DNA of 59,123 nucleotides, filler included, from Fonticula-like sp. SCN 57-25 (Eukaryota): NCBI GenBank assembly GCA_001724245.1. It is 4 parts of 4 records of this genome, joined end to end, with 100 filler letters (N's around TTAATTAATTAA, not from the genome) between each part and the next. Parts side by side here need not be neighbours in the genome. Positions count along the whole stretch, not along the records: positions 49,983 to 59,123 come from MEDX01000685.1; 3 more parts are not named here. One strand, 5' to 3'. A model generated the notes under the pieces. It made no database searches, had not been told where the DNA came from, and saw only the letters and a list, made by a program, of their open reading frames with translations. Shown one piece after another: positions 17,453 to 59,123 of the stretch. Position 1 is the first letter of the stretch; each line of letters starts with the position of its first letter. Both the position numbers and the translations under genes were made by a program.

Positions 17453-17552
17453 NNNNNNNNNNNNNNNNNNNNNNNNNNNNNNNNNNNNNNNNNNNNTTAA
17501 TTAATTAANNNNNNNNNNNNNNNNNNNNNNNNNNNNNNNNNNNNNNNNNNNN
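17453..17552. other. Artificial contig spacer
   Basis: N-run containing TTAATTAATTAA (stops in all six frames). Confidence 0.97.
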
Positions 17553-33559: not shown

Positions 33560-33659
33560 NNNNNNNNNNNNNNNNNNNNNNNNNNNNNNNNNNNNNNNNN
33601 NNNTTAATTAATTAANNNNNNNNNNNNNNNNNNNNNNNNNNNNNNNNNNNNNNNNNNNN
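33560..33659. other. Artificial contig spacer
   Basis: N-run containing TTAATTAATTAA. Confidence 0.97.
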
Positions 33660-34730
33660 CCGCCACCACAAGCGCCAACGCGGTCGAGCGCGAACAATGA
33701 ATCATGATGCTTGTCGAGGATTGCCAGGCGAAGGAGAGTGGCAAGGAACGTGGCGCAAAAGACGGTCGCATGCCCCGTTTTATACCTCAGCTGTGGGGAG
33801 AGCCCCAACCCCCCGAAAGCCTTTGCTAAAAGTAGCAACGTTGCCCTCGTTGGAGGCCAATGGCGGCGTTTATCCCCCGCGCAACTGGACTTTGCAAATG
33901 AGATGGAGTGGCTTTGCATTGTTCTAGAAAGGAGGGCAATGTGATCATGCGTCCGTATGGGCGTGTAGCTCGCCGTGGGAAAACCGAGTCTTTACGTTTT
34001 ATCGCTCCTGGGCCATCGCAGATCGTCATCGCATCATCGCTTCATCGCGGATCTTCGCCATCGCCAATCTTGCCTGCTGATGCTACGTTGGATTTGTCAC
34101 CGGCTTAGGATTCCACGATATTCCCCATCGGCTTCCTCCTTTACGCGACGTCCAACGGCGAGGATGTCCTCGCGATCACGGCCACAGGCAACAGCATTGC
34201 GAACGATCCGAGGCGGCTCTTTTCACTCTTGAACATTGTGGTTCTATTCACCTCGTAAGCTCGCTCGTGTGGCAACGTCCATGTCCAAGTGAGCAGGGCT
34301 GCCGACTGCGGGCAGCCGTGCAATGCCAAGCTGCCGATAGCCATCGCGTGCAGAACAAAAATCATCGCACGCGACGTGTTGGACAGTAGGACTCGGGACT
34401 TTTATGGGACGCTTAGTTCGTCTATATAACGTCAACACTCTCCCGCCATTACCGATTCTCGGCGGATTCGCGCGCGGACTTTAGGACTGATGCGGTTCAT
34501 CTGACTGCTCAAGCTGTGCAACAGTGTGTATCCCTGAATCCTTTTTACTGAATCTTTGCGAATATAATAATATGCTGGTCCCATATTCCATTACCAGTCT
34601 GACCTGGCACAAACTTGCCCCCCGTAATCAAAAACCGCCCATTGGTTGCGTTGCCTAGCCGTAAATAGAAACCGTCTGCCCGAGTTTTCTTTTCTCTTTC
34701 CCTATGTCCTTTCCTCCCTCGTCGCCAGTA

Positions 34731-35231
34731 ATGGCATCCAAGTGGGGCATCCTCGCGGCGTTGGCGGTGCTGCTAGCCTTTCGCTGTGTACCTGTGTCGG
34801 CGTCCGACCAGTGCTTGTGCCAGTGCTGCAACTACAACCAGCAGTCCTGCGTTACGCCAAATGTCATTAACAATGTGGAGTGCGGTGATCCTGAACATTG
34901 CAGTAAGGAGGTGTGCAACCGCAGGTTCTCTTGCGACATGTACCAGTTCCCCATCATGTTTGCCAGCTGCGTTAACGACGACAGTGTCTGCGACACGGTC
35001 GATTCTCCGGCGTGTTACCACGGGCTTTTACCATGGCAGGTGAAGGCGATCAGCATCTCGGTTGTCTTGATTGTCGTTATAGCAGCAGCGGCAGGAGGCT
35101 TCGTGTACTACCGTCGCCGCAAGGCGAACCGTGTGGCCCTCGCTGTCGCCACGTCGTCGCCGTACGAGGAGAGCGATGCCGCCTACACAAAGATTTCGGA
35201 CGACCCGAACTACGACATCGTCAAAGTCTAG
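34731..35231 (+). CDS. Small Cys-rich type I membrane protein (cassette copy 1)
   Basis: Signal peptide, 12-Cys ectodomain, TM helix, RRRK stop-transfer and Tyr-containing tail. Intronless. Paralog at 51471-51968. Confidence 0.85.
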   Translation: MASKWGILAALAVLLAFRCVPVSASDQCLCQCCNYNQQSCVTPNVINNVECGDPEHCSKEVCNRRFSCDMYQFPIMFASCVNDDSVCDTVDSPACYHGLLPWQVKAISISVVLIVVIAAAAGGFVYYRRRKANRVALAVATSSPYEESDAAYTKISDDPNYDIVKV

Positions 35232-35332
35232 CGCGGCTCTGGCGCAGCTTACAGTTGTTTGTATGTATAAAGATTCTCTAGCTACAAATAAACAACGGTA
35301 GCCGCTTTCGCGCTCTCGCAACGCTTCTCTCC

Positions 35333-35740
35333 ATGGTTCAAATAGCCGGAATTGACGTTGGTGTCCGTAACCTCGCGATCACCGTCGCGGAAATAGACGT
35401 CCACGACGGCGCCGCTTGGGCACATGGATCCACAATCCATCACGTGGAGAACATTGATCTCCTCGAGAACAACGGCCTGGAGGTGGGTAACAGCAACGCC
35501 GTCTCGCTCGACCGTATGTACGCCATGTGCACCGCGGCCCTGTGGAATAGCGCATCAATATCTTTAGGGGCAATCGTCCTAGAACTGTGGTCACTGTATA
35601 AGCGCGCACGGCGACGCAGCGCAACGTCCTATGCGCCGAGGCGCCGTGCACCAGACGCCAAATGGCTTGTTGAACTGCAAAGAGTGAGGCCCCTTCGCCC
35701 TCTCATCACCTCCCAAACGGAGGCGTCAATGAACGTCTGA
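35333..35740 (+). pseudogene. Truncated RuvC-like Holliday junction resolvase (poxvirus A22/Cce1-Ydc2-like N-terminus)
   Basis: MVQIAGIDVGVRNLAITV...IHHVENIDLL. The C-terminal acidic motif is not visible. Confidence 0.55.
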
Positions 35741-40178: not shown

Positions 40179-43211
<3,033 letters not shown>

Positions 43212-43485: not shown

Positions 43486-46445
43486 ATGCTTCCTGAGACA
43501 CATGTGAACGCTTTTTCAGCAGTTGAGCAAGCGCCCCATCCCCATGTGCGGACCGTAGAGGACATTGTGCGCGATGAGGCGATAAGTGTGTCTCTAAACC
43601 GTGGGCTTTCGTCGCAAGAGGCGGCGGAGCGATTGGCACGATATGGAACGAATGAGCTCAAGGCGAGCGGCGGAGCGCACTTTCTCAAGCTGCTTCTGCG
43701 TAACACATTCAACCCCATGAACTTTGTGCTGGCGGCCGCTGTCGCTCTAAGCGCCGTCGCGGGTGACTACATAGAGTCGATCGTCGTCGCTATAATCATT
43801 ATTGGAAACACGTCAATCTCCGTGTATCAAGAGTACAGTTCGGAGAAGACACTTGAGGCGCTGCGCCGCATGTCGTCGCCGATCGCGCACGTGCTGCGCG
43901 ACGGTGAAGAGATCGACCTTCCTGCGGTGCACGTGGTGCTCGGCGACATTATCGTGCTGCGGGAGGGCGACCAGGTGCCCGCAGACATTCGACTCTTTGA
44001 GGCCATCAACCTTGGCGTAGACGAGGCCATGCTCACGGGCGAGTCTCTGCCCGTGCGCAAGAACACGGACGTTCTCACCGACCCTGACGTGCCGCTCGGT
44101 GACCGCCGCTGCCTCGCGTACAAGAACACAGTCGTCACGCTCGGCCGAGGTCGTGGCGTCGTTACGGCCGCCGGTATGGAGACGGAGATCGGAAAGATCG
44201 CCAAGTCGATTGCGTCGTCCGATGGCTCATCGTCAACGTCGCTTGAACGCCAGATGCGCTGGCTCATGTTTGGCCTCTTCGTACGTCCTCAGAGTTGGTA
44301 CCTGTGCACTAATCCGCATGGAATATTAGGGCTGCGCGGTTGCGCTTGCGCTCATCGTCTTTGGTGTAAGCGACTTTAATGTTACGAATGAGGTGCTCCT
44401 GTATGCATTGGCGCTGTCGGTGGCCATCATCCCCGAGGCGCTCCCCGCTGTCGTGACCATCACCTTTGCCGTTGCGATGCGGACGCTGGCCAAGGAGCGC
44501 GCCGTCGTGCGGCGCATGAGTGCCCTCGAGGTCCTCGGCACCGTCACGGATATTTGCTCGGACAAGACGGGCACGCTAACGGTCGGCCGGATGACGGCCG
44601 TAGTGCTCTGGACACCGGCGGGCCGAGTCGCGGCTAAACACGGACACCAAATTGAACTATTCTGATGTGCAGCATGCCGGCATGCGCCGAATGCTGCTCT
44701 GCTGCGCACTCAACAACACTGCCTCTATGATGGACCGCGAAGGCACTATGGTGGCCGTCGGTGACCCGACCGAGACGGCGCTGCTCATCGCTGGCGCCAA
44801 CAGCGGTCTCGACAAGGCATCGCTGCAGGAGAGCGAATTTGAGTACGAGACCGAGTTTCCCTTTGAGGCGTCACTCAAGCGCATGACTGTCGTTTCGCGT
44901 GTCAAGCGCGGCGACGAAGAGATCCGCCTCGTGCTCGCAAAGGGCGCGGCCGAAGTTCTGCTCGAGCGCTGCACCCACATCATTAACGCCCCCGGCGAGA
45001 TTGTCAAGATGTCGGATGACGCACGTGATGCCGTGATTGCGCAAACGCAGCTCTACGCGGATGATGCGCTGCGCGTGCTCGCTTGCGCCTACCGCGAGGA
45101 CAAGGATTTGACCGTCTCCCTCGACATTGACAACCGGAGCGCGTTCGAGTGCGGCTGGATCTTTTGCGGTCTTGCCGGTCTGCAGGACCCGGCACGTCCC
45201 GAGAGCGCGCCTGCCGTTGCGCGGTGCCGCCGCGCAGGCATTGTAGTCCACATGGTTACGGGCGACCACCCGCGCACCGCGGCTGCCATCGCTCGCCGCG
45301 TTGGCATTCTGCAGGAAGGGTCCGTTGTGATGGAGGCACGCGACTTCGATGGTATGTCGGACGAGGCGGTGGACGCGATGCCCGAACTTCCCCACGTGAT
45401 TGCGCGCTGTGCGCCTGAGAGCAAGGTGAAGCTGATCAAGGCGTTGCATCGCCGCAAGCGCACGGTAGCCATGACGGGTGACGGGGTCAACGACGCGCCG
45501 GCCGTCAAGCATGCCGACGTTGGAATTGCCATGGGACACGGAGGCACGGATGTCACCAAGCAGGCCGCTGACGTCGTGCTTACCGACGACAACTTTGCTA
45601 CGATTGTGCGCGCTGTCGCGGAGGGCCGGCGCATTATTACCAACATTTCCAAGTTTACCCTTCATCTACTGAGCGCGAATGTGTCGCAGGTGCTCGTACT
45701 CATCGTGGGTCTTGGTCTTGTCGGCGTCAAGGGTGACATTGTGTTCCCCATGTCGGCGCTGCAGATTCTCTGGATGAACCTCGTGACGTCGTCAGTCCCC
45801 GCAGTTTTCCTCGGCTTGGAAAAGTCGATGCGTGGCATCATGGACCGTCCCCCCAAGTCCTCTCGCCGTGTCATTTTCAGCCCCGAGACAATCATTGACA
45901 CCTTTGCGTACGGCGTCATCATTGGCGCACTTGTCCTCGTCATCTTTTGCCTCGTCATCGTGATCTCCCCCGATGGCTTCTTTAGCGCCACCGGCTGCAA
46001 CCACAACTATGAGCTTCCGGGGTGCGAGGTTGTGTACCGCGCGCGCGCCGCGGCTTTTACTGCACAGTGCATCATGCTACTGCTGCACGCCTACAATTGC
46101 CGTGACCTTAACAAGTCGCTCTTCAGAATGACCTATTCGGACAACAAAGGCCTCTCCTACGTCGTCATAGCAATGACGCTGCTGCTCATCCCGCTTATCT
46201 ACGTGCCGTACGTAAATTACGAGCTGTTCAAGCAGGCGCCTATCAGCTGGGAATGGGGACTCGTGGTGGGAGGAAGCGTCATCTTTGTCTGCATCTCGGA
46301 GCTGTACAAGGCAGGAAAGCGAGAGATCCACAGACGCCTCAAAACTTCGGATAACCTTGGCATTCAACGCAGCGACACCGTGAGTGTTGCCAAACAGAGC
46401 GCCAATGACATCGAACTCCAGGAAGAGGTTGTCATGTCTCTTTAA
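43486..46445 (+). CDS. ENA: ENA-type (P2D) Na+/K+-exporting P-type ATPase, paralog B, multi-exon
   Basis: Same motif set (DKTGTLT, VIARCAPESKVKLIKALHRR, ILWMNLVTSS). Introns at about 44281-44329 and probably 44627-44672. Confidence 0.88.
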
Positions 46446-49882: not shown

Positions 49883-49982
49883 NNNNNNNNNNNNNNNNNN
49901 NNNNNNNNNNNNNNNNNNNNNNNNNNTTAATTAATTAANNNNNNNNNNNNNNNNNNNNNNNNNNNNNNNNNNNNNNNNNNNN
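49883..49982. other. Artificial contig spacer
   Basis: N-run containing TTAATTAATTAA. Confidence 0.97.
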
Positions 49983-50460
49983 GCACCAGGAACCTGTGAG
50001 GTTGCAGTCGTACAGGATCGTGTTGTCGCACTGCACGCGAATCTTGGGATAGAACGAGCTCCAGCTGGATCCGCCGTTTGGAATATTCAACGTGTGCACG
50101 TTCATGTCCGTGATGCGCTTCGACGAGTATGCGTAGTAGCTGTTGTCCGAAGCCCCCGTGCCACACAACTGCGAACCCCAAGACATGATGTACTTGTCGT
50201 CGTCGATGGCGCGGACCGTGTAGTTGGCCGTGAAGGAGTTCACGTTCGATTGGCATGTCGTCAGATAGTAGTACATGCTGCTTCCGGAAGGAGTTCACGT
50301 TCGATTGGCATGTCGTCAGATAGTAGTACATGCTGCTTCCGCCCTTGAGCAAAAGCTGCTGGTTGTTCCAGCAGGTGAGCGCGTCGGCCGGATGCGTGAA
50401 CAATACTGCCGCTACCGCCACCACAAGCGCCAACGCGGTCGAGCGCGAACAATGAATCAT
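49983..50460 (-). pseudogene. Secreted Cys-containing protein, frameshifted by a 55-bp tandem duplication; 3' end cut by the gap
   Basis: Signal peptide MIHCSRSTALALVVAVAAVLFTHPADA. Exact duplication 50232-50286/50287-50341. Removing one unit restores a continuous ORF. Confidence 0.65.
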
Positions 50461-51470
50461 GATGCTTGTCGAGGATTACCAGGCGAAGGAGAGTGGCAAG
50501 GAACGTGGCGCAAAAGACGGTCGCATGCCCGTTTTATACCTCAGCTGTGGGGAGAGCCCCAACCCCCCGAAAGCCTTTGCTAAAAGTAGCAATGTTGCCC
50601 TCTTGGTGGCCAATTGAGGCGTATATCCCCTGCGCAACTGGACTTTGCAAATGAGATGGAGTGGCTTTGCGTTGTTCTAGAAAGGAGGGCAATGTGATCA
50701 TGCGTCCGTATGGGCGTGTAGCTCGCCGTGGAAAACCGAGTCCCTACGTTTTATCGTTCCTGGGCCATCCCAGATCGTCATCGCTTCATCGCTTCATCGT
50801 GGATCTTTGCATCATCATCGCGGATCTTTGTATCATCGCGGATCTTCGCTTCATCGCTTCATCGCCTGCTGATGCTACGTTGGATTTGTCATCAGCTTAG
50901 GATTCGACGATATTTCCCATCGGCGTCCTGTTCTTCGCGACGTCCAACGACGAGGACGTCCCCGCGATCACGGCCACAGGCAACAGCATTGCGAACGATC
51001 CGAGGCGGCTCTTTTCACTCTTGAACATAGTCACCTTTGTAAGCTCGCTCGTGTGGCAACGCCCATGTCCAAGTGTGCAGTGCTGCAGACTGCGGGCGGC
51101 CGTGTAATGCCAAGCTAACGATAGCCATCGCGTGCAGAACAAAGACATAGTACCGTGTTGGATCGTGGGTGCAGGACTTTGATGGGACGCTTAGTTCGTC
51201 TCTATAACGTCGACAATCTCACGCCAGTACAGTACCGATTCTCGGCGGATTTGCGCGCGGACTTTGGGACTCTGCTGCGATTCATCTGACTGCTCAATTT
51301 CTGTGCAACTGTCCAGTCCGCGGCTCTAATAAAAGTCCCATACCGGTCTGACCTGACACAAACTTGCCCTCGTAATCAAAAACCGCCCATTGGTTGCGTT
51401 AACTTGCCGGAAATAGAATCCGTCTGCCTTTTTCTCTTTCCCTACGTCTTTTCCTCCCTCGTCGCCAGCA

Positions 51471-51968
51471 ATGGCATCCAAGTGGAGCATCCTTGTCCTG
51501 GTGCTCGTGTGTCTGGCAGTCTACACTGTCCCCGTCCACGGTGTGGGAGACGTGTGCGCATGCGAATGCTGCAACTATAACCATGCATCCTGTGTGTCAC
51601 CACCCGTCAGTTTTGGTTGGAATTGCGACGATCCAGGCTGCACTGATCAGTGCATCAACAGGTACGAGTGCACCAATTACCAGTTCCCTATCATGTTCCC
51701 ATCGTGCACTCGAGGCGCCACTTGCGGTGTCCCTGGTACTCCGTTATGTGACGATGGCTCTGTGAATACGGCAACCGCGATGGCCGTTGGCATCTCCATC
51801 ACCATAGTTGTCGTCCTTGCGGGTGGGATCGTTGGAATCCTCTATTTCCGTCGCCGCAAGGCGAGCCGCGTTGCCCTCGCCGTCGCGTCGTCGTCTCCAT
51901 ATAGCGACAGCACTTCGCCCTACACCAAGATTATGGACAACGCCGAAATCGACATCGTCAAGGCCTAA
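51471..51968 (+). CDS. Small Cys-rich type I membrane protein (cassette copy 2)
   Basis: Same 12-Cys spacing, YQFPIMF motif and RRRKAxRVALAVAxSSPY...YTKI...DIVK tail as 34731-35231. Confidence 0.85.
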   Translation: MASKWSILVLVLVCLAVYTVPVHGVGDVCACECCNYNHASCVSPPVSFGWNCDDPGCTDQCINRYECTNYQFPIMFPSCTRGATCGVPGTPLCDDGSVNTATAMAVGISITIVVVLAGGIVGILYFRRRKASRVALAVASSSPYSDSTSPYTKIMDNAEIDIVKA

Positions 51969-52120
51969 AGTCCCTTCCTTCGTGTTTGTTCTTTCCATTG
52001 GTCCAAATATACAATGCTAGAGCAGGATTTGCACAACCAATTCAGTCCAGCACCATCCTGTCTCGCGACGGACTTGGCAGGTCAAGCTCCAACGTACGAG
52101 GCCAGTAGCTCTGTACTCGG

Positions 52121-53000
52121 CTAGTGCAGCGGCACGATATCCGCCACGAGCTCGCCGCGGTCCGCTGTCGTGCGAGCACGACAGCTTGATGCCACCGCAC
52201 TCGCGTAAATGTACCCGCGCTCGCCACACGTCTTAAACCGCTCCATTGCACAGCACCACGTCGCATTGTGCAAACCACCGCCTCGCGAAGTAAATGTATC
52301 CGCATGTGGTAATGCGAAGACGTCACGAGCCCCGCGCCGAATTGCTGATGAAGCGCTGCACGCGTGAGCGACGCACCATGCGCTATGCGTCGAAAGCAGT
52401 AGCACCACATCGCGCGTAGTTGGGAAGAATAATGCAGTGCTGTTGCGAATATGCGTCCAGTGCGACTGAACTTCATCCGCTTAGTGCGCTTGGTGGTCCA
52501 GCCGCGAGACGTCGCTTTTACCAATTTCATGCGCGTCGCCCGTTGGACTGTACGCCATGAGGCACACCGCGCTTGAGCATTACAACGGGCAGGCAACAGG
52601 CTCGAGGGGTCGTCACTGCTGAACGCGTGACGCATAGGTAGATTGCGACCGAGGCGTTCGCGCTGCCCGCGGCGCAAGCGCAACAGGAAACGCGTAGGCG
52701 CCGCGCTTGTGCGCTTAGTGCTTGGCGTGCTCGACGATCGCTTATTTGGAACGTAAGCGGGTCGTGAAGCGCTGGCGCTTGGCGGCAAAGTTACTTTTGA
52801 AAGTGTTGAGCAGGTCGCACAGCGCCTCGTGCGGGCGTCGTACGGCGTGTCGGCGGCACACGGTAGCTCGCGGAGCGCGAGCGAGTCTGTGCTGAAAAAC
52901 GCAGCAAGGAGGTTGGAGCGGGTGCGCGAGGCGCAGCAGCGGACGGCTGCGAGACACGTCCATCGTGCTATGCCCATCCAGTGCCGCAGCGTAGCGGCCT
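52121..53000 (-). pseudogene. Decayed Fanzor2/IS607-type TnpB nuclease
   Basis: Motifs found in order across frames: LRHWMGIARWT, TPYDAR-EALCDLLNTFKSNFAAKRQRFTTRLRSK, MAYSPTGDAHEIGKSDVSRL, SHYHMRIHLL, KTCGERGYI, DRGELVADIV. Multiple stops and frameshifts. Confidence 0.75.
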
Positions 53001-53029
53001 CGGCCGCGGTTTCGCTCCCGATTCACTCG

Positions 53030-53437
53030 CGTTGCTTTCGCGTCGAGCGCTCTCCGTTTTTGGGCGCGACAAACACGAAGCGATGGAGAACAGGCCGTCG
53101 GCAAGCTCGTTGGTCGCGGTGTCGAGACCACCGTGAACCAATATGCGGCACGCCGGCCAGATCGGCGCCAGTTGAGATCGGAGGTGACGCCGGTAAAGGA
53201 GCTCATGGTCGCGGTAGGTGCGTCAGAGGTCGTCGGTCTACCGTTCCAAGTCATGCCGGTGGAGGCGACGCGAGCGTATATGACGTGCGCCTTTTGTGGA
53301 CCGGTAGCACAGGGCGTGCTTGCAGCGAGCTCGCGCACGATGTCGGCGACGTTGTAGCCCCAGGCGCCTGGACAGCGCACACGACCGAGCTCAGCATCGA
53401 TGTGATGTTTCTTTTCCTGGATACGTCGAGGACGCAT
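53030..53437 (-). pseudogene. Decayed IS607-family serine recombinase (TnpA)
   Basis: N-terminal HTH-like remnant, then VIYARVAS, HDLER*TDDL*RTYRDHELL, TSDLNWRRSG and ELADGLFSIA..VFVAPKNGERS, directly upstream of the TnpB remnant. Confidence 0.75.
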
Positions 53438-53659
53438 GCGCGGAAGTGACGAGGTGCGGACTGGGGTGCTGTGCCTTTGACGAACATCGGTACGGAACAC
53501 GCGACAGTGCCCCATGACTGGTGAGCGCCATGCCTTGCTACTGTAAGCAACCGAAAATAAAAGTATGTCTATTGAGGGATTGCATGTTTGTGAATAATGA
53601 ATTGTAATGTTATTCCTCGAGTTTATGGGTGGGTGGTAGCTACGGTTTATGTGCCCTGG

Positions 53660-54045
53660 ATGGTTCGTATATCCGGTTATGACGTGGGTGACTGACACCA
53701 AAATCCAAGCCAAACGCTTGGGACCCTCGGTCTACCATCTGGAAAAAACCTGATCTGCACGAGGACAATGGCTTGGAGGTTGCCAACAGCTACGCCGACT
53801 CGTAGGACCCCATGAACGCCATGTGCACGGCGGCCCTGCGGAAAAGCGCAACTATATCTTTACGGGCGGTCGTCCTAGAGCTGTGGTCACTGCATAACCA
53901 CGCCCGGCGACGCAGCGTAACGTCCTATGTGCCGAGGCGCCGTGCACCAGACGCCAAATGGCTTCCAAAGAGTGAGGCCCCTCCGCCCTCTCGTCACCTC
54001 CCAAACGGAAGCGTCAATGAACGTCTGATGTCAAAAGCAATTTGA
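53660..54045 (+). pseudogene. More degraded copy of the RuvC-like ORF
   Basis: MVRISGYDVG aligns to MVQIAGIDVG, and downstream DNA aligns to 35440-35750 with stops and indels. Confidence 0.55.
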
Positions 54046-54774
54046 ATGTGCACTCGAGTCGTGCTACGTACTGTCACAATTCACCTTTCCATAAAGAATA
54101 GCAGAAATGCGCGTTGGACGGGTAGACGAACCACGCAAGAATACGAAATGATTATGCGCGAATTACTTTGTGCGAGCAGAGCAGTGGGGTGATAGTAGTG
54201 CCACTGCACCACCAAGACCAAAGGCCCTGCCCCAGCCGTGAACGCCGACGAAAGTGGTACCTGTCTACCGAATTTGCGGTAGTACTTGAGACAGTCAGAA
54301 ATTGGTTCAGCCGCAAGCAACTCGCCAATTCTCGCCATCTGACCACTTCTGGCGCCTACCGCCTTTCCCTCAGTCAACACATTTAAATGCTCCTCTGCCT
54401 CGACGAACAAACTCAAACCGTCAGCCTTGACGCGTCGCCGAAATCAGGCGCACCAGCGCTAGGAACTGGAGGAGGCCGACAAAATAACATGCCGACGCAG
54501 CGGTGTGTACGACTGCAGTAAGCATGTCCCATTGACACCATCGAACTTGCTAGGATGTTTGACAGTGAAGATGGCATGCACGCCCTCGGTCACGGAAGCC
54601 TTGCCACTTAAGCACGGCCACAGTGTACCGACTCTATGAACCATGCTCTTTTAGTCGAGTATTACATCATGCTGCCTTGCATTGAACGACCATCGATTGA
54701 CGACAAAGCATAACATTACAGAATGGCTCTTTATTGGAGAAATACACGTATTCGATATTGCGTGCTCGTTTCTC

Positions 54775-55506
54775 TCAGCGGTACTCGGCCGCATCTTCCT
54801 CGTCGCCAGAGACGTCAGATTCCTCGGCCGCTTCGCCGGGAGGCGCATCGCCCGAGTGATGCTTACGCACATGCTTGCCGAGCGCACCCTGGTTGCTGTA
54901 CGTTTTATCACACTCGCTGCAGGAAAGCCTCTTCGATGAAGCCGCGCGTTTCTTGGCGGTGCTGCTCGTCGTCCGCGGAGCTGCGCGTTTCCTCGCCGGC
55001 GTTTGCGGTGCTGATGGCGCCGCCGGCGCCGCGGGCGAACCTGCCTGGTTGACGACAGGCGAGCGGGTGATCTCCGTCGTCGACAAACCCTGCTCCGCCT
55101 GTTGAGCGGTGGCGGCCGTGGTCCTCACCGCAGATAAAGCATTCGGGGTCCGCACAGCAGATGAGGCATACTGGGTGCGCACAGCGAGTGCCGCTTCCGT
55201 TGGGACGGAAGGTTGAGATCTAGACGACAGTCGCTTTTCAAGATTGTAGAGCTCGGCAGAGACAGCAAATAGAAGATCCTCCTCCTCGGCATTCTGCCCA
55301 AATCCTTTTTCAACTCGAGCAACGACCGCGCTCAGGCTATCGCGCAGCACGCGCAAGGCAAAAGCCGTTCTTCCCTCCTGCATCTGCTCAACGGAAACAA
55401 CGGAAAGAGAATGGCGCGGTGACGTGATTGGTCGGCTTGGTTTGTGCGCCAAATCCACAAAATGAATCCCCAACAAATTCCTTGTGACCCAAGGTGTTGG
55501 GGACAT
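54775..55506 (-). CDS. Single C2H2 zinc-finger protein (cassette copy 2)
   Basis: Open 243-aa frame with CSECDKTYSNQGALGKHVRKHH, near-identical to copy 1. Confidence 0.7.
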   Translation of the reverse strand: MSPTPWVTRNLLGIHFVDLAHKPSRPITSPRHSLSVVSVEQMQEGRTAFALRVLRDSLSAVVARVEKGFGQNAEEEDLLFAVSAELYNLEKRLSSRSQPSVPTEAALAVRTQYASSAVRTPNALSAVRTTAATAQQAEQGLSTTEITRSPVVNQAGSPAAPAAPSAPQTPARKRAAPRTTSSTAKKRAASSKRLSCSECDKTYSNQGALGKHVRKHHSGDAPPGEAAEESDVSGDEEDAAEYR

Positions 55507-55792
55507 ACTCTACTAACGAAAATGTGACTTATTTTGAGCGCATGCTAGGCTTCGTGTGACGCATGAACTACCCAGAAACGACTCTCTTGACGAACTAATG
55601 TGATGTGTGGGCTCCGACTGCTAAATCAACTGACCTTGCATTGTCAAGTTACAACAAAAACACTTTATTTCGCGTTCAATACAAATTGCATGACAAAGAC
55701 GGATGTTGTCTTCCCAGCGAACGGTAATTTCTTGCTGCGCCAAGTAATGGTGGAGTTGCACACAACAAAAATACCCATCCCACCTGTACCAC

Positions 55793-57253
55793 ATGGCAGC
55801 ACCATCTGCAGTCCACGCGAGCCCAGAGTCATCCGTGCTTGCACAGCGCATAGGTCGCAGCATTGGGCGCCCTCTCATTGAACCGAGCGTATCTGGAAAC
55901 CAGTCTACGCTTGACATTGACACGCCACGCGTGCTTCCATTGGCCATCGACGAACCCGCTTGCCAAATGGCGGATGTAGGTGCAGAGCTGAGCGACAGCC
56001 AGCACCCGCGTGCGGGGTCAACTTGTTTGCCCCCTAACAAGTGGAACCAGCTCACCAACGCGCAGGCATGGAATCCCACCGCCAGCCAAGCAATGCCAGA
56101 GTACGACCGTGCCGTCCACCACGTCCCAGGCACGGCCCGCTTCCGAGCACGAGCGGCCGATGGACGAACAGGCACGCTGCCGCGCCCCAATTCGGAGCAT
56201 CCCGCCGCGACGGGCGATCTCGCGAAGTGGCCAGCGAACGAGTCGCGCCCCGCCTTTGCAAAAAAGTGTCTCGACCGCGCGCGTCAGATGTACCGCGCGG
56301 CGGAAGGCATCTTCCGCTCCGTGATTGAGGCTGAAGGTGCTGCTGCCCCCAGCCATATTAACTTTCGCAAGGCAACAGGGCTCGCCTATGCCACCACACC
56401 AGGGCAGCCGCAAAGGCCGCGGCACAACCGCCAGAGTGCGCTATGGCTCGTGTTCATGGCCTACCGGCTCGTCCGCGACGTCGAGGTCAACCCACGAGCG
56501 CGCGCGGACCCCATGCGCGCCGTCGAGGACGAGGACTACTGCATCGTCATGGGCACGCGCCACATGGAGCCAAACCGTCTCGCAGGCAACTACGCGAATG
56601 CTTCCGATCCAGGCGACGCAGCAGCCAACGCTATCACGACGGACATGGCGCAATGCCTGCGTAACGTGCACGCAAACTTTCCACCCAATGTCAGCCAGCC
56701 TCTGCTTGCCGCCATCGCTGCGGCAAACCCCAACGCCGCCACCGACGCATTGATCCAGCCGCGCTTCCGCTCCTGGGCCAATGTCGGCGAACCGTACCCC
56801 GCCAACGAGTCGCCTTTTCCAGGACGCGACCCAACGTACGTTCCTATCTTCTTTCCCTCGGGTCGCTCCGCTCAAGCACCCACCGCGCCACCTTACAACC
56901 CTGCCGACCCTTCGCCGCCCGCTGGCGCCCCTGATAGCGAGGCTCTGTGGGACGCGCGGGCAGCTGCAACGCTTCTACAGACACGCATGGCGCAACTCTC
57001 GGCCATCGCGCTGCAAGCACAGCGCATGAACTCCGGCACCACACCTGCCAACGGCCAATGCGCCTATCTTATGGCTGCGGAGACGCTTCCGCCCGGCAAT
57101 TTGCTTAGCGGGTCTGTTGTGACGGACGATGCCGCGCAAACGACGCGTACCGAGGAATGCGCAAAAAAGGAAGCGGTTGATGGGGATGACGTCGCACGCA
57201 AGCGTATGCGCATGGAACTCGGATGTTCTTCGGATACAGTCAACACCATGTAA
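55793..57253 (+). CDS. Orphan 486-aa ORF of the cassette
   Basis: Long open frame divergent from the C2H2 gene, with a homologous but broken copy at 37515-38821. No family recognised. Confidence 0.55.
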   Translation: MAAPSAVHASPESSVLAQRIGRSIGRPLIEPSVSGNQSTLDIDTPRVLPLAIDEPACQMADVGAELSDSQHPRAGSTCLPPNKWNQLTNAQAWNPTASQAMPEYDRAVHHVPGTARFRARAADGRTGTLPRPNSEHPAATGDLAKWPANESRPAFAKKCLDRARQMYRAAEGIFRSVIEAEGAAAPSHINFRKATGLAYATTPGQPQRPRHNRQSALWLVFMAYRLVRDVEVNPRARADPMRAVEDEDYCIVMGTRHMEPNRLAGNYANASDPGDAAANAITTDMAQCLRNVHANFPPNVSQPLLAAIAAANPNAATDALIQPRFRSWANVGEPYPANESPFPGRDPTYVPIFFPSGRSAQAPTAPPYNPADPSPPAGAPDSEALWDARAAATLLQTRMAQLSAIALQAQRMNSGTTPANGQCAYLMAAETLPPGNLLSGSVVTDDAAQTTRTEECAKKEAVDGDDVARKRMRMELGCSSDTVNTM

Positions 57254-59123
57254 TCAACGTCCGACGGTGAAATGCTGCACGTTCCTGTATTAACAATAAA
57301 TAGGAACCCTGTGGAATGTGCTTGCAGCAATGAATGAGAAATGAAAGAAAGTACTATGTAAGTTTCAACGTATGATTGTAGGTCAACAATGCTGCCAAGA
57401 ATTCAACACATTTTCCAGCACTTGGTCGACGTGGAAAGCCTTGATCACCGCTCACGATCTCGCGTCTCCTATTCAAAGAATGCAATACGACGGGCGATAA
57501 TATAGTGAAGCGTGAAGCTCAAACGTCTCAGAACAGTAGGCTTGAAATCAAGATCATTGTCAAAAATGTCCAGAACGCGCCGCGGCAGCCTCTCCCGGCA
57601 GCCAGGTTAACGCTAGACATTAAAATTCAACTGACTCGTTTGACTGCATCCTACGGCGACTTTTCGAGATGCCGACTGGACTCGGATCGCCTTGGTAGTA
57701 ACGCGCACTTTCTTCACAGTTTGTAACAAAAAGAGATCTGGTGAATCTCGCCTCATCACCGTCACCGTCACCATCACCATCACCATCACCCACCGAGCTT
57801 CGTTGATGCAGCTGCCTGAAGGTACTCACAACCGCAATGAGCATGGTTATTAGGTAATGCACCTGCTCATGGTTCCCCCTGCATGTATACCACAGGTTTC
57901 AGCGGTGCCACGGACTGGCAGCCGAGCAAGGCTGTAAAATATTCGATGATCTTTCCATAAGTTGCGGTCAGACGCCTTTCGTCGGTGCACTTGCACCTTT
58001 CAAAGCGTGTATGGGTAAGGCGACGTCCAACACTCGGCAAGGCGGCTAGCGGGCGCATTTTCTTTGCAATATATTGAGCGCAAGAATCGCTTGCAGCATT
58101 GGATCCACCTCTACCACTCAATGCGCATTAATTAAATGTGGAGCAGAGTTATGAGCAGCCTGGTGTGGCCCAAGCGCAGATGACCGCTAAATTTAAAGGG
58201 CTCTCAGGATCGGTAGACGCGGTGGGCTACCGAGCAAGAATTCGCTCTTGATCGCCCAGCATCAGCAGGCCTAGCCAGTCGCCAGCAAAAAAATTTCGAA
58301 TCGTCAGTCGACGATTGACCTGCTCATTTGCACCAATTTATCGCCTATGCAGCGCTCACTTGAGCCTACGGATTTAAGATGGTGGCCAAACAACGATATT
58401 GGCTACACGTGGGAACCACAGTGTACCTCTCCTTCGGTGCTGGCGGCCTCGAATTTTGCCACCTGTCGTCTGCCTTCGGTAATTTGACGCTGCTACTACT
58501 GCGTCGCCTCCAGACGAGAATTGCTCTGCCGGTTGATGCTGAAGTCGTCGCCTGTCCGCCTGCCGGGCGCAACTTTTCCTTGCCGCCCTGCGCAGAAGCG
58601 CGATTGCTTCCCACGCCACAGTGAGCTGACTCACATCATGGAGGAAGAGTTCTCTGCCTGGTGGCATATCGGTGGCACCAGCAAGATTTTTACCTGCGCT
58701 GAAGCCACCAATACACCGACATCATCGCCGCCGACGTCCATTGCAAAGAGAACAAGGAGCTCTACCACGTTTGTTCAAGCATATTGCCTTGTGCTCCGCC
58801 TCTGTGGCCCGATACTTAGTACGCGATGCATTTTCACACGAGCTGAGGTCTCATTCACCGCCCTTCTATCATCGGGAAGCTCGCTAGACAACCGCTGCCA
58901 CCCACTGGCCAGGTATTCGGTCTGTCACCTTCATTTCGGCTACTCCTCCAAACCAACTGTTTCAAAATTGAATGTATTCAAGAATTGCTACAACGCACAG
59001 TCTAACGCCCTGCAAAGAATTTTATACCCAAATGACGACACCCTGATTAACGGCCCGCATCATGCAGCAAACCAGTGGCAGCTAACGCAAAGCACATTCT
59101 CGAAAACATCAAAAGCAGAACAG

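Follow-up and report, generated by a model that had tools for sequence, protein, structure and literature searches.

Decayed IS607-like fragments that carry remnants of TnpB/Fanzor2 genes, often multiplied through segmental duplication, have been catalogued from eukaryotes since 2013 (PMC3673617, PMC3627910; here and throughout, citations refer to excerpts of the papers). We analyzed a stretch of DNA of 59,123 nucleotides from Fonticula-like sp. SCN 57-25 (GCA_001724245.1), hereafter the window, in which the second copy of a duplicated cassette, within the part from MEDX01000685.1, contains about 1.6 kb of extra sequence. We read this interval, with a probability of about 0.93, as a dead and heavily decayed IS607-type transposon on the minus strand of a eukaryote-like genome, holding pseudogenes of tnpA and Fanzor2. 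Judged by the families of its two genes, the element was probably once moved by its recombinase and capable of RNA-guided cleavage: TnpA, a serine recombinase bearing a helix-turn-helix (HTH) at its N-terminus, would have excised and reinserted the element without target-site duplication, and Fanzor2, the eukaryotic or viral nuclease of TnpB type, would have been guided, as in living relatives, by RNA from the 3' end of the element. A dead IS607/Fanzor2 relic is an ordinary find, such relics being already known from eukaryotes. The features discussed below are as follows:

52021..53653 (ends ±15 bp), minus strand: whole IS607-type relic, ~1.63 kb, in cassette copy 2 only, delimited by alignment of the copies' flanks
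53500..53653, minus strand: left-end (LE) non-coding region upstream of tnpA, richer in A+T; TnpA alignments begin at ~53495
52999..53495, minus strand: tnpA pseudogene, IS607-type serine recombinase, from frameshift-aware alignments, profile and HMMER
52182..53010, minus strand: core of the Fanzor2/TnpB-like pseudogene, with an HTH_OrfB-like N-terminus (TLRHWMGIARWT), WED/REC, RuvC-I, RuvC-II and the first zinc-finger half
52563..52586, minus strand: RuvC-I remnant VVMLKRGV, in which Lys-Arg replace the Asp-Pro of ALDPGVRTF (D448 and P449, invariant in alignment A2)
52022..52181, minus strand: eroded 3' part (second zinc-finger half, RuvC-III, and the right end, where the scaffold of a guide RNA, omega/f, would be expected), not resolvable
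35302..35325: matching site in cassette copy 1, ~24 bp of filler aligning to neither the copy 2 flank nor the relic

Two broken genes on the minus strand

A preliminary description of the window had proposed that a frameshifted IS607 TnpA followed by a Fanzor2 gene lies hidden here, visible in no single open reading frame (ORF), and had listed eleven peptide motifs. All are found on the minus strand, in three frames and in the order proposed:

53281-53261, minus strand: IYARVAS (TnpA)
53252-53241, minus strand: DLER (TnpA)
53182-53156, minus strand: SDLNWRRSG (TnpA)
53108-53082, minus strand: ELADGLFSI (TnpA)
52980-52957, minus strand: WMGIARWT (Fanzor2)
52848-52831, minus strand: TPYDAR (Fanzor2)
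52816-52787 and 52759-52745, minus strand: DLLNTFKSNF and RLRSK (Fanzor2)
52552-52538 and 52528-52511, minus strand: YSPTG and EIGKSD (Fanzor2)
52317-52309, minus strand: SHY (Fanzor2)
52234-52223, minus strand: KTCG (Fanzor2)
52162-52154, minus strand: DRG, whose link to RuvC-III is not significant

The last motif is present, but its assignment to RuvC-III did not stand, the C-terminal piece of the profile scoring at chance level, and it is kept as a candidate only.

Homology was scored with a self-written local protein-versus-DNA aligner that allows frameshifts (BLOSUM62, gaps -11/-1, frameshift -10), the background coming from both strands of the remaining window, cut into 58 tiles of 1.9 kb. 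For the initial four viral reference pairs alone, 40 dinucleotide shuffles were added; six later references were further controlled with reversed proteins and with the region's plus strand. To obtain references, viral contigs were scanned with a degenerate form of the IS607 TnpA active-site motif; this gave six seed loci with TnpA followed by a TnpB/Fanzor-like gene, one of them the Feldmannia species virus element. Starting from the TnpA and Fanzor2 of that virus, we assembled 120 TnpA homologues listed of 423 significant ones and the best 150 of 8490 Fanzor2 homologues, and we added 80 metagenome and 80 prokaryote-genome loci for comparison. Profiles were built from 15 TnpA and 14 Fanzor2 sequences (the latter alignment A2). 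The reference nucleases contain PF07282, PF12323 and PF01385, and the reference TnpAs contain PF00239 with MerR/HTH, PF00376. The expected matches to Resolvase (PF00239) and OrfB_IS605 are reached indirectly, by way of the reference proteins, with OrfB_IS605, Cas12f1-like TNB and HTH_OrfB as the nuclease domains, while the broken peptides of the window give no Pfam match of their own. Frameshift-aware alignment to these real proteins was strongly significant for both genes.

The TnpA profile scored 70.6 against a tile background of 24.7±3.0 (maximum 34.9), the 56 aligned columns holding 2 frameshifts and 2 stops, and three of the four arbitrary viral TnpAs reached 57-63 against nulls of ~35-39 ± 4-6, equaled by 0-1 of 58 tiles and 0 of 40 shuffles. 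Scores of at least 55 were obtained with 79 of 121 TnpA homologues, and no tile of 58 reached the scores of the best references, P0076, P0119 and P0093 (125, 116 and 111; tile maxima 72, 52 and 54). The P0076 alignment runs from ~53395 in the HTH region, of which tnpA keeps traces, to the C-terminus at 52999. Its successive elements are VIYARVAS, a frameshift, DLER and a stop, one more stop, TYRDHEL, another frameshift and SDLNWRRSG, then a gap of about 40 residues, ELADGLFSIA, a further frameshift and VFVAPKNGERS. The gap of ~40 codons falls where the conserved catalytic core 'vvVAHRDRLxRFG...' should lie. The first Ser after Val in the consensus IYARVSS, which we take to be the nucleophile of the serine recombinase, is Ala in the window. 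This substitution, the two in-frame stops, the several frameshifts and the deleted core leave tnpA dead. As a pseudogene it retains the IS607 combination of an N-terminal MerR-like HTH and a resolvase domain, and it lies upstream of the tnpB-type gene on the same strand (53495-52999 and 53010-52182, both minus), an order shared by 44 of 51 viral and metagenome loci in which both genes occur.

For the nuclease, the Fanzor2 profile scored 124.8 against 26.3±2.7 (maximum 35.6) from 53010 to 52182, with 10 frameshifts and 4 stops. The best single reference, a metagenome ORF (L007:852-2321), scored 243 with 107 of 270 residues identical (39.6%), 9 frameshifts and 4 stops. P0153, P0204 and P0179 followed at 211, 207 and 202 (tile maxima 71, 79 and 59, 0 of 58 tiles reaching any of them), the median over 151 homologues being 62. 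Homology covers the HTH, WED/REC and RuvC regions, with references, profile and HMMER in agreement, and corresponding segments read as follows, the window first and then the profile consensus or a single reference:

TLRHWMGIARWT: TLKKWFGxARWTYNQC
TPYDAR / EALCDLLNTFKSNFAAKRQRF..RLRSK: VPYDVRDEAMxDLLKAYKSNFAK...KFRSKK
AIVEHAKH*AHKRGAYA: IVIxxKHWxxxRGxYA
IYLCV: YYLCxP
VVMLKRGV: ALDPGVRTF
YSPTGDAHEIGKSDVSRL: YDPxGxVxEWGxGDxxRIYRL
FDA*RMVRRSRVQRFISNSAR: FETxxMVRRGxRxIxSKTAR
LVTSSHYHMRIHLL: TWSHYRFRQRLL
CDVVLCN / ERF--KTCGERGYI: CxVxxxxExYTSKTCGxCGxxH

The suspected erosion of the RuvC-I aspartate region is evident in the fifth pair. Blocks of ~28, 13 and 8 profile columns are absent from the window, and the zinc finger is broken, EaYTSKTCGxCG reading ERF--KTCGERG. 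With reference ORF sizes giving an expected length of ~2.3 kb, we estimate that ~0.6 kb has been lost. The Fanzor2 gene, with 9-10 frameshifts, 4 stops, Lys in RuvC-I, a broken zinc finger and internal deletions, is likewise dead. The suggestion that this copy is probably dead is borne out and extended by the Ala at the recombinase nucleophile position and by the stops, frameshifts and deletions of both genes. The conserved Fanzor2 motif D-X(125,275)-[TS]-[TS]-X-X-[C4 zinc finger]-X(5,50)-RD (PMC3627910), which amounts to an intact RuvC triad and zinc finger, is not present. Because the RuvC-I Asp is Lys, the zinc finger is broken and neither its second half nor the RD is recoverable, we file the relic as derived from the Fanzor2 family and not as a functional member.

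HMMER gave the same picture with our own models built from both alignments and searched against all 2135 six-frame stop-free fragments of the window. The best matches for both models fall in the relic region, collinear and in three frames:

52745-53731, minus strand: fragment matching TnpA, E 2.2e-4, profile positions 42-113
52045-53022, minus strand: fragment matching Fanzor2, E 2.1e-5, profile positions 177-241
52745-53731, minus strand: the same fragment matching Fanzor2, E 0.048, profile positions 241-273
52484-52579, minus strand: fragment matching Fanzor2, E 0.045, profile positions 361-380

Motifs gathered from three frames might be a chance resemblance. Single ORFs match nothing in Pfam or the Protein Data Bank (PDB), and the four arbitrary viral references gave no significant nuclease (Feldmannia species virus Fanzor2 alone scoring 48 on the window against a null of 40±5); tblastn with these four pairs returned borderline TnpA matches only (E 0.65-3.9). 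Against this, the profile scores stand 15 (TnpA) and 36 (Fanzor2) standard deviations above the 58 tiles, and the top HMMER matches among the 2135 fragments lie here for both models. The controls refute chance resemblance, and we give it practically no credence.

That the genes might still be alive, with introns, programmed frameshifting or a nonstandard genetic code restoring the reading, could be argued from the two long ORFs (311 and 323 aa) that traverse the region. These ORFs are mostly out of frame with the homology and have only themselves as relatives; a search for close intact relatives of the 326-aa stop-free fragment of the window, among proteins of 179-571 aa, likewise returned only the window's own ORF. 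Conserved motifs are themselves interrupted by frame changes that leave no space for an intron, as between YARVAS and DLER; substitutions affect key residues (Ala for the nucleophile, Lys-Arg for the RuvC-I Asp-Pro), and conserved blocks are deleted. A living gene is extremely improbable, and the two pseudogenes of the IS607-type relic remain our reading.

The lesions are not assembly errors, since contigs from other sequencing runs match pieces of the relic and the host ORFs near it, of 528-597 aa, are intact:

51975-53039: contig of run X2, 1 difference from the relic
53026-53201: contig of run X2, 0 differences
53337-53587: contig of run X2, 1 difference
53559-53872: contig of run X2, 0 differences
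Two 151-nt pieces within 52376-52772: contigs of run X4, 0 differences
53556-53784: contig of run X5, 2 differences and 10 gap letters

In addition, a single contig of 2962 nt covers 51300-53960 without difference. Contigs of runs X1 and X2 also show a joint from 51895 to 53751, which we considered as an excision product and rejected; given a divergence of ~10-15% from the flanks, we read that contig as the paralogous cassette copy 1.

The duplicated cassette and the age of the relic

The cassette is a diverged direct duplication, resolved by self-BLASTN into three arms:

33660-35230 and 50415-51967: arm 1, 76.9% identity
35455-38030 and 53751-56283: arm 2, 91.7% identity
38017-39423 and 56468-57795: arm 3, 84.2% identity

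Between arms 1 and 2 the spacer measures 224 bp in copy 1 and 1783 bp in copy 2. Closer alignment extends the left-flank homology to ~35301/52020 and resumes it on the right at ~35326/53654. The relic is present in only one copy of the duplication, sequence from ~52021 to 53653 being absent from copy 1, as had been proposed; the element end previously put at 53600 shifts to ~53653. Aligning the copies places both ends to within about ±15 bp. The relic has a G+C content of 58-60%, the flanks 53-54%.

Several observations concern the junctions. No terminal inverted repeats were found in the relic, internal pairs being only ~75% complementary; this would fit IS607, whose elements have neither terminal inverted repeats nor target-site duplications (PMC6188088; PMC3627910). 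At the LE-side junction with host sequence, GGG stands on the minus strand at 53654-53656, with ends known to ±15 bp, and as IS607 prefers (G)GG targets (PMC6188088; bioRxiv 10.1101/2023.08.09.552727), this may be a hint of a target trace. GG at one transposon terminus is a further mark of the family. A motif of ~20 bp (TTCTCTCCATGGTTCAAATA-like) occurs twice in copy 1, ~50 bp apart (35274-35345) and on both sides of the filler, and in copy 2 once on each side of the relic (51988-52020 and 53650-53675). It resembles a target-site duplication, yet IS607 makes none, and as it is doubled in copy 1 too, the pattern is not clean.

The earlier suggestion of an insertion and its empty site is sustained as far as presence in one copy goes; the history of insertion is not, in view of the 24 bp of filler and the high indel load of the relic. 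The three cassette arms show 5.4, 12.7 and 19.6 gap openings per kb, both lineages summed, and the relic has at least 10 frameshifting indels in ~830 bp, ~12 per kb, on one lineage. Insertion into copy 2 after the duplication, with copy 1 as the empty site, would most simply explain why only one copy has the relic; homology of the flanks continues on either side, and the GGG at the LE-side junction agrees with the target preference of IS607. A clean empty site is missing, as ~24 bp in copy 1 match nothing in copy 2, and an element arriving after the duplication should be less decayed than the copies have diverged, unless it was defective on arrival. We consider this history to have slightly less than an even chance. 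Because of the filler in copy 1 and the indel load of the relic, we rate as about equally likely that the element stood in the ancestral cassette and was later mostly deleted from copy 1. This would explain the unalignable filler, the TTCTCTCCATGGTTCAAATA-like motif flanking both filler and relic, and an indel load of the relic at least as high as the divergence between the copies. On the other side, the filler has no convincing similarity to the relic interior (the best local score, 17-23, being the flank motif itself), references of only ~40% identity may exaggerate the number of frameshifts, and coding sequence, which purges indels, makes up part of the flanks. The relic would date roughly to, or before, the local duplication.

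Two further features of the cassette are these:

34704-35231, plus strand, and 51471-51968, plus strand: small Cys-rich protein (175 and 165 aa, respectively) whose frame is open in each cassette copy
35333-35740, plus strand: ORF of 135 aa in copy 1, starting MVQIAGIDVGVRNLAI, directly adjoining the site where copy 2 has the relic

The Cys-rich protein, for which no Pfam family was found, reads as a putative single-pass membrane protein with a start like a signal peptide. Its frames stay open in copies only ~77% identical in DNA, which suggests that the gene is still under selection in both. The 135-aa ORF has no Pfam match either; its start is one that we take to resemble the N-terminus of a resolvase of RuvC/RNase H fold. 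The copy 2 counterpart, at ~53660-53760, is broken, truncated and diverged.

Host setting and overlapping frames in related loci

In the flanks, two P-type cation ATPases, an HCO3/boron-type transporter and a C2H2 zinc-finger protein are encoded by long ORFs that have no introns. The best named relatives of the transporter, at no more than 45% identity, come from Basidiobolus, chytrids and assorted protists, and the window looks eukaryotic. The sequence was found in bioreactor, wastewater and soil metagenome runs, among which no RNA runs are listed. The relic would show that an uncultured eukaryote once hosted the Fanzor2 family of RNA-guided nucleases; this copy, which can neither move nor cut, matters little alone. 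It is possible, albeit rather doubtful, that a Fanzor2/IS607 subfamily of its own is represented here, in an uncultured eukaryote that may be an early-diverging fungus, with intact active copies perhaps surviving elsewhere in a genome whose housekeeping transporter is only ~45% identical to that of any named one.

Other features of the window are as follows:

40179-41765, minus strand, and 44652-46445, plus strand: P-type cation ATPase gene fragment in two inverted, diverged copies, a second local duplication with ~67% DNA identity over 891 aligned bases
17453-17552, 33560-33659 and 49883-49982: stretches that each consist of 44 N, 12 bases and 44 N, one ending exactly where cassette copy 1 starts (33660)
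37770: a single N

In the comparison loci (L001-L166), we observed a recurrent overlap of the two genes. Of 44 same-strand viral and metagenome loci, 38 have a stop-to-stop Fanzor2/TnpB ORF that shares at least 300 nt with tnpA in frame +1, as do 14 of 20 loci from prokaryote genomes, where most of those with names are cyanobacterial. The overlapping ORF starts near the tnpA start and covers nearly all of tnpA, ~500-700 nt, always at an offset of +1 (for example L001:1089-2826, L012:588-2415 and L087:57-1863). The overlap persists in loci with 23-31% G+C. Within tnpA, stops in frame +2 average 18.8 in viral and metagenome loci and 13.8 in prokaryote-genome loci; frame +1 of the same-strand loci listed mostly has 0-4 stops and at most 7, and seven tnpA genes with the nuclease gene on the other strand have 19-43 stops in frame +1. 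The N-terminal extension of the nucleases has conserved PFWN and SWF motifs. IS607 is described as having 'two overlapping open reading frames', and one Acanthamoeba ORFB as having a 100-aa N-terminal insertion (PMC3673617); an overlap of tnpA and a +1 nuclease frame of this kind was not found in the excerpts of the IS607/Fanzor2 papers covered. If real and unreported, the pattern would mean an N-terminal nuclease extension of 150-250 aa overprinted on a recombinase gene, and it may be of wider interest than the relic.

Placement among known systems

The relatives of the relic lie at some distance. Its highest identity in a 50-row tree set is 39% over 258 columns, to a transcriptome protein of the amoebozoan Phalansterium solitarium (P0217), and BLASTN against 86 comparison loci (L001-L086) found no nucleotide similarity. 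Among solved structures, P0153 comes closest to 'TnpB-like protein L79' (9b0l, E 2.8e-33, residues 263-634), with TnpB and Cas12f entries next. In the tree, the relic sits on a long branch (1.55) and groups with P0240, the Phalansterium protein, L007 and L008 (SH-like approximate likelihood-ratio test 93, not starred), outside a starred clade of cyanobacterial TnpBs. The flanking genes place it in a eukaryote-like genome, residence in a eukaryotic or eukaryote-virus genome being a Fanzor2 trait.

A bacterial source, that is, a horizontally acquired IS607 of cyanobacterial type carrying an ordinary TnpB, or a contig that is a bacterial-eukaryotic chimera, has to be weighed here. The window is metagenome-type data, cyanobacterial IS607 are the prokaryotic elements most like eukaryotic IS607-like sequences (PMC3673617), and a topology uniting the relic with the cyanobacterial TnpBs is not rejected (approximately unbiased test, p 0.36). 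Among prokaryotic relatives from 185,579 species genomes, however, scores on the window did not exceed 96, the best being cyanobacterial, against 243, 211 and 207 for relatives outside that collection, and the free tree puts the relic with the Phalansterium protein and metagenome sequences. The relic's G+C content is near that of the flanks; it lies between duplication arms that also exist without it, and the 2962-nt contig spans it unchanged. A bacterial origin or a chimera therefore seems improbable, and we retain the decayed eukaryotic IS607-type element.

Besides that test, further results weigh against this identification. The Fanzor2-type label would follow from best-hit similarity and the eukaryote-like host and flanks, not from a resolved tree. 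The aligner and its scores are home-made, with 58 tiles and 40 shuffles as controls in place of an analytic E-value, and six ORFs of the relic region matched no relevant Pfam family at E up to 1, the two long ones (323 and 311 aa) giving only esterase and nonribosomal peptide synthetase noise among PDB sequences. At the 3' end, the last 40 Fanzor2 profile columns (second zinc-finger half and RuvC-III, 'DRD.NGARNI') scored 18.9-21, with 98 of 420 control tiles reaching the 18.9 of the shorter piece, and the N-terminal extension profile was not above chance (28 of 150 tiles as good). No second copy serves to fix the element ends, good to ~±15 bp, and the lack of terminal inverted repeats counts here as well. 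Rfam gave 0 matches in the 3' end at E up to 1, and the RNA fold of 52010-52260 is unremarkable (z-score -1.8), so that a guide-RNA structure is not shown. As a worked case, the locus demonstrates that ORF-level searches of Pfam and PDB miss such relics wholly, whereas frameshift-aware profile alignment finds them easily.

Among known systems, the eukaryotic IS607-like elements with Fanzor2 (Bao & Jurka 2013, PMC3627910; Gilbert & Cordaux 2013, PMC3673617) share with the relic the order of TnpA then Fanzor2 on one strand, the lack of detected terminal inverted repeats and a eukaryotic or eukaryote-like genome. Most of the 80 eukaryotic IS607-like sequences are, like it, fragmentary and in segmental duplication (PMC3673617). 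Decay has gone further in it than in the Acanthamoeba copies that this literature describes as potentially active, and its identity to the closest protein available is only ~39-40%. Its host appears to be an uncultured eukaryote, with early-diverging fungi as the best named matches at no more than 45% identity. The Feldmannia species virus element (L006) shares the tnpA-Fanzor2 layout, YSPDG..GEIG after RuvC-I, WSHYRF and a C-terminal zinc finger, but is distant, its Fanzor2 alone not being significant on the window. Cyanobacterial IS607 (ISArma1-type TnpA with TnpB) have the same two-gene layout, with an extended TnpB ORF over tnpA, but reside in bacterial hosts with intact genes and are far less similar to the relic (at most 96 against 243). 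The Fanzor2 of Acanthamoeba polyphaga mimivirus (L79, 9b0l; ApmFNuc), matched by the relic's homologue P0153, likewise accompanies a TnpA in an IS607 setting; L79 is intact and is described as an active RNA-guided nuclease (PMC10530073), whereas the relic has lost both its RuvC-I Asp and its reading frame.

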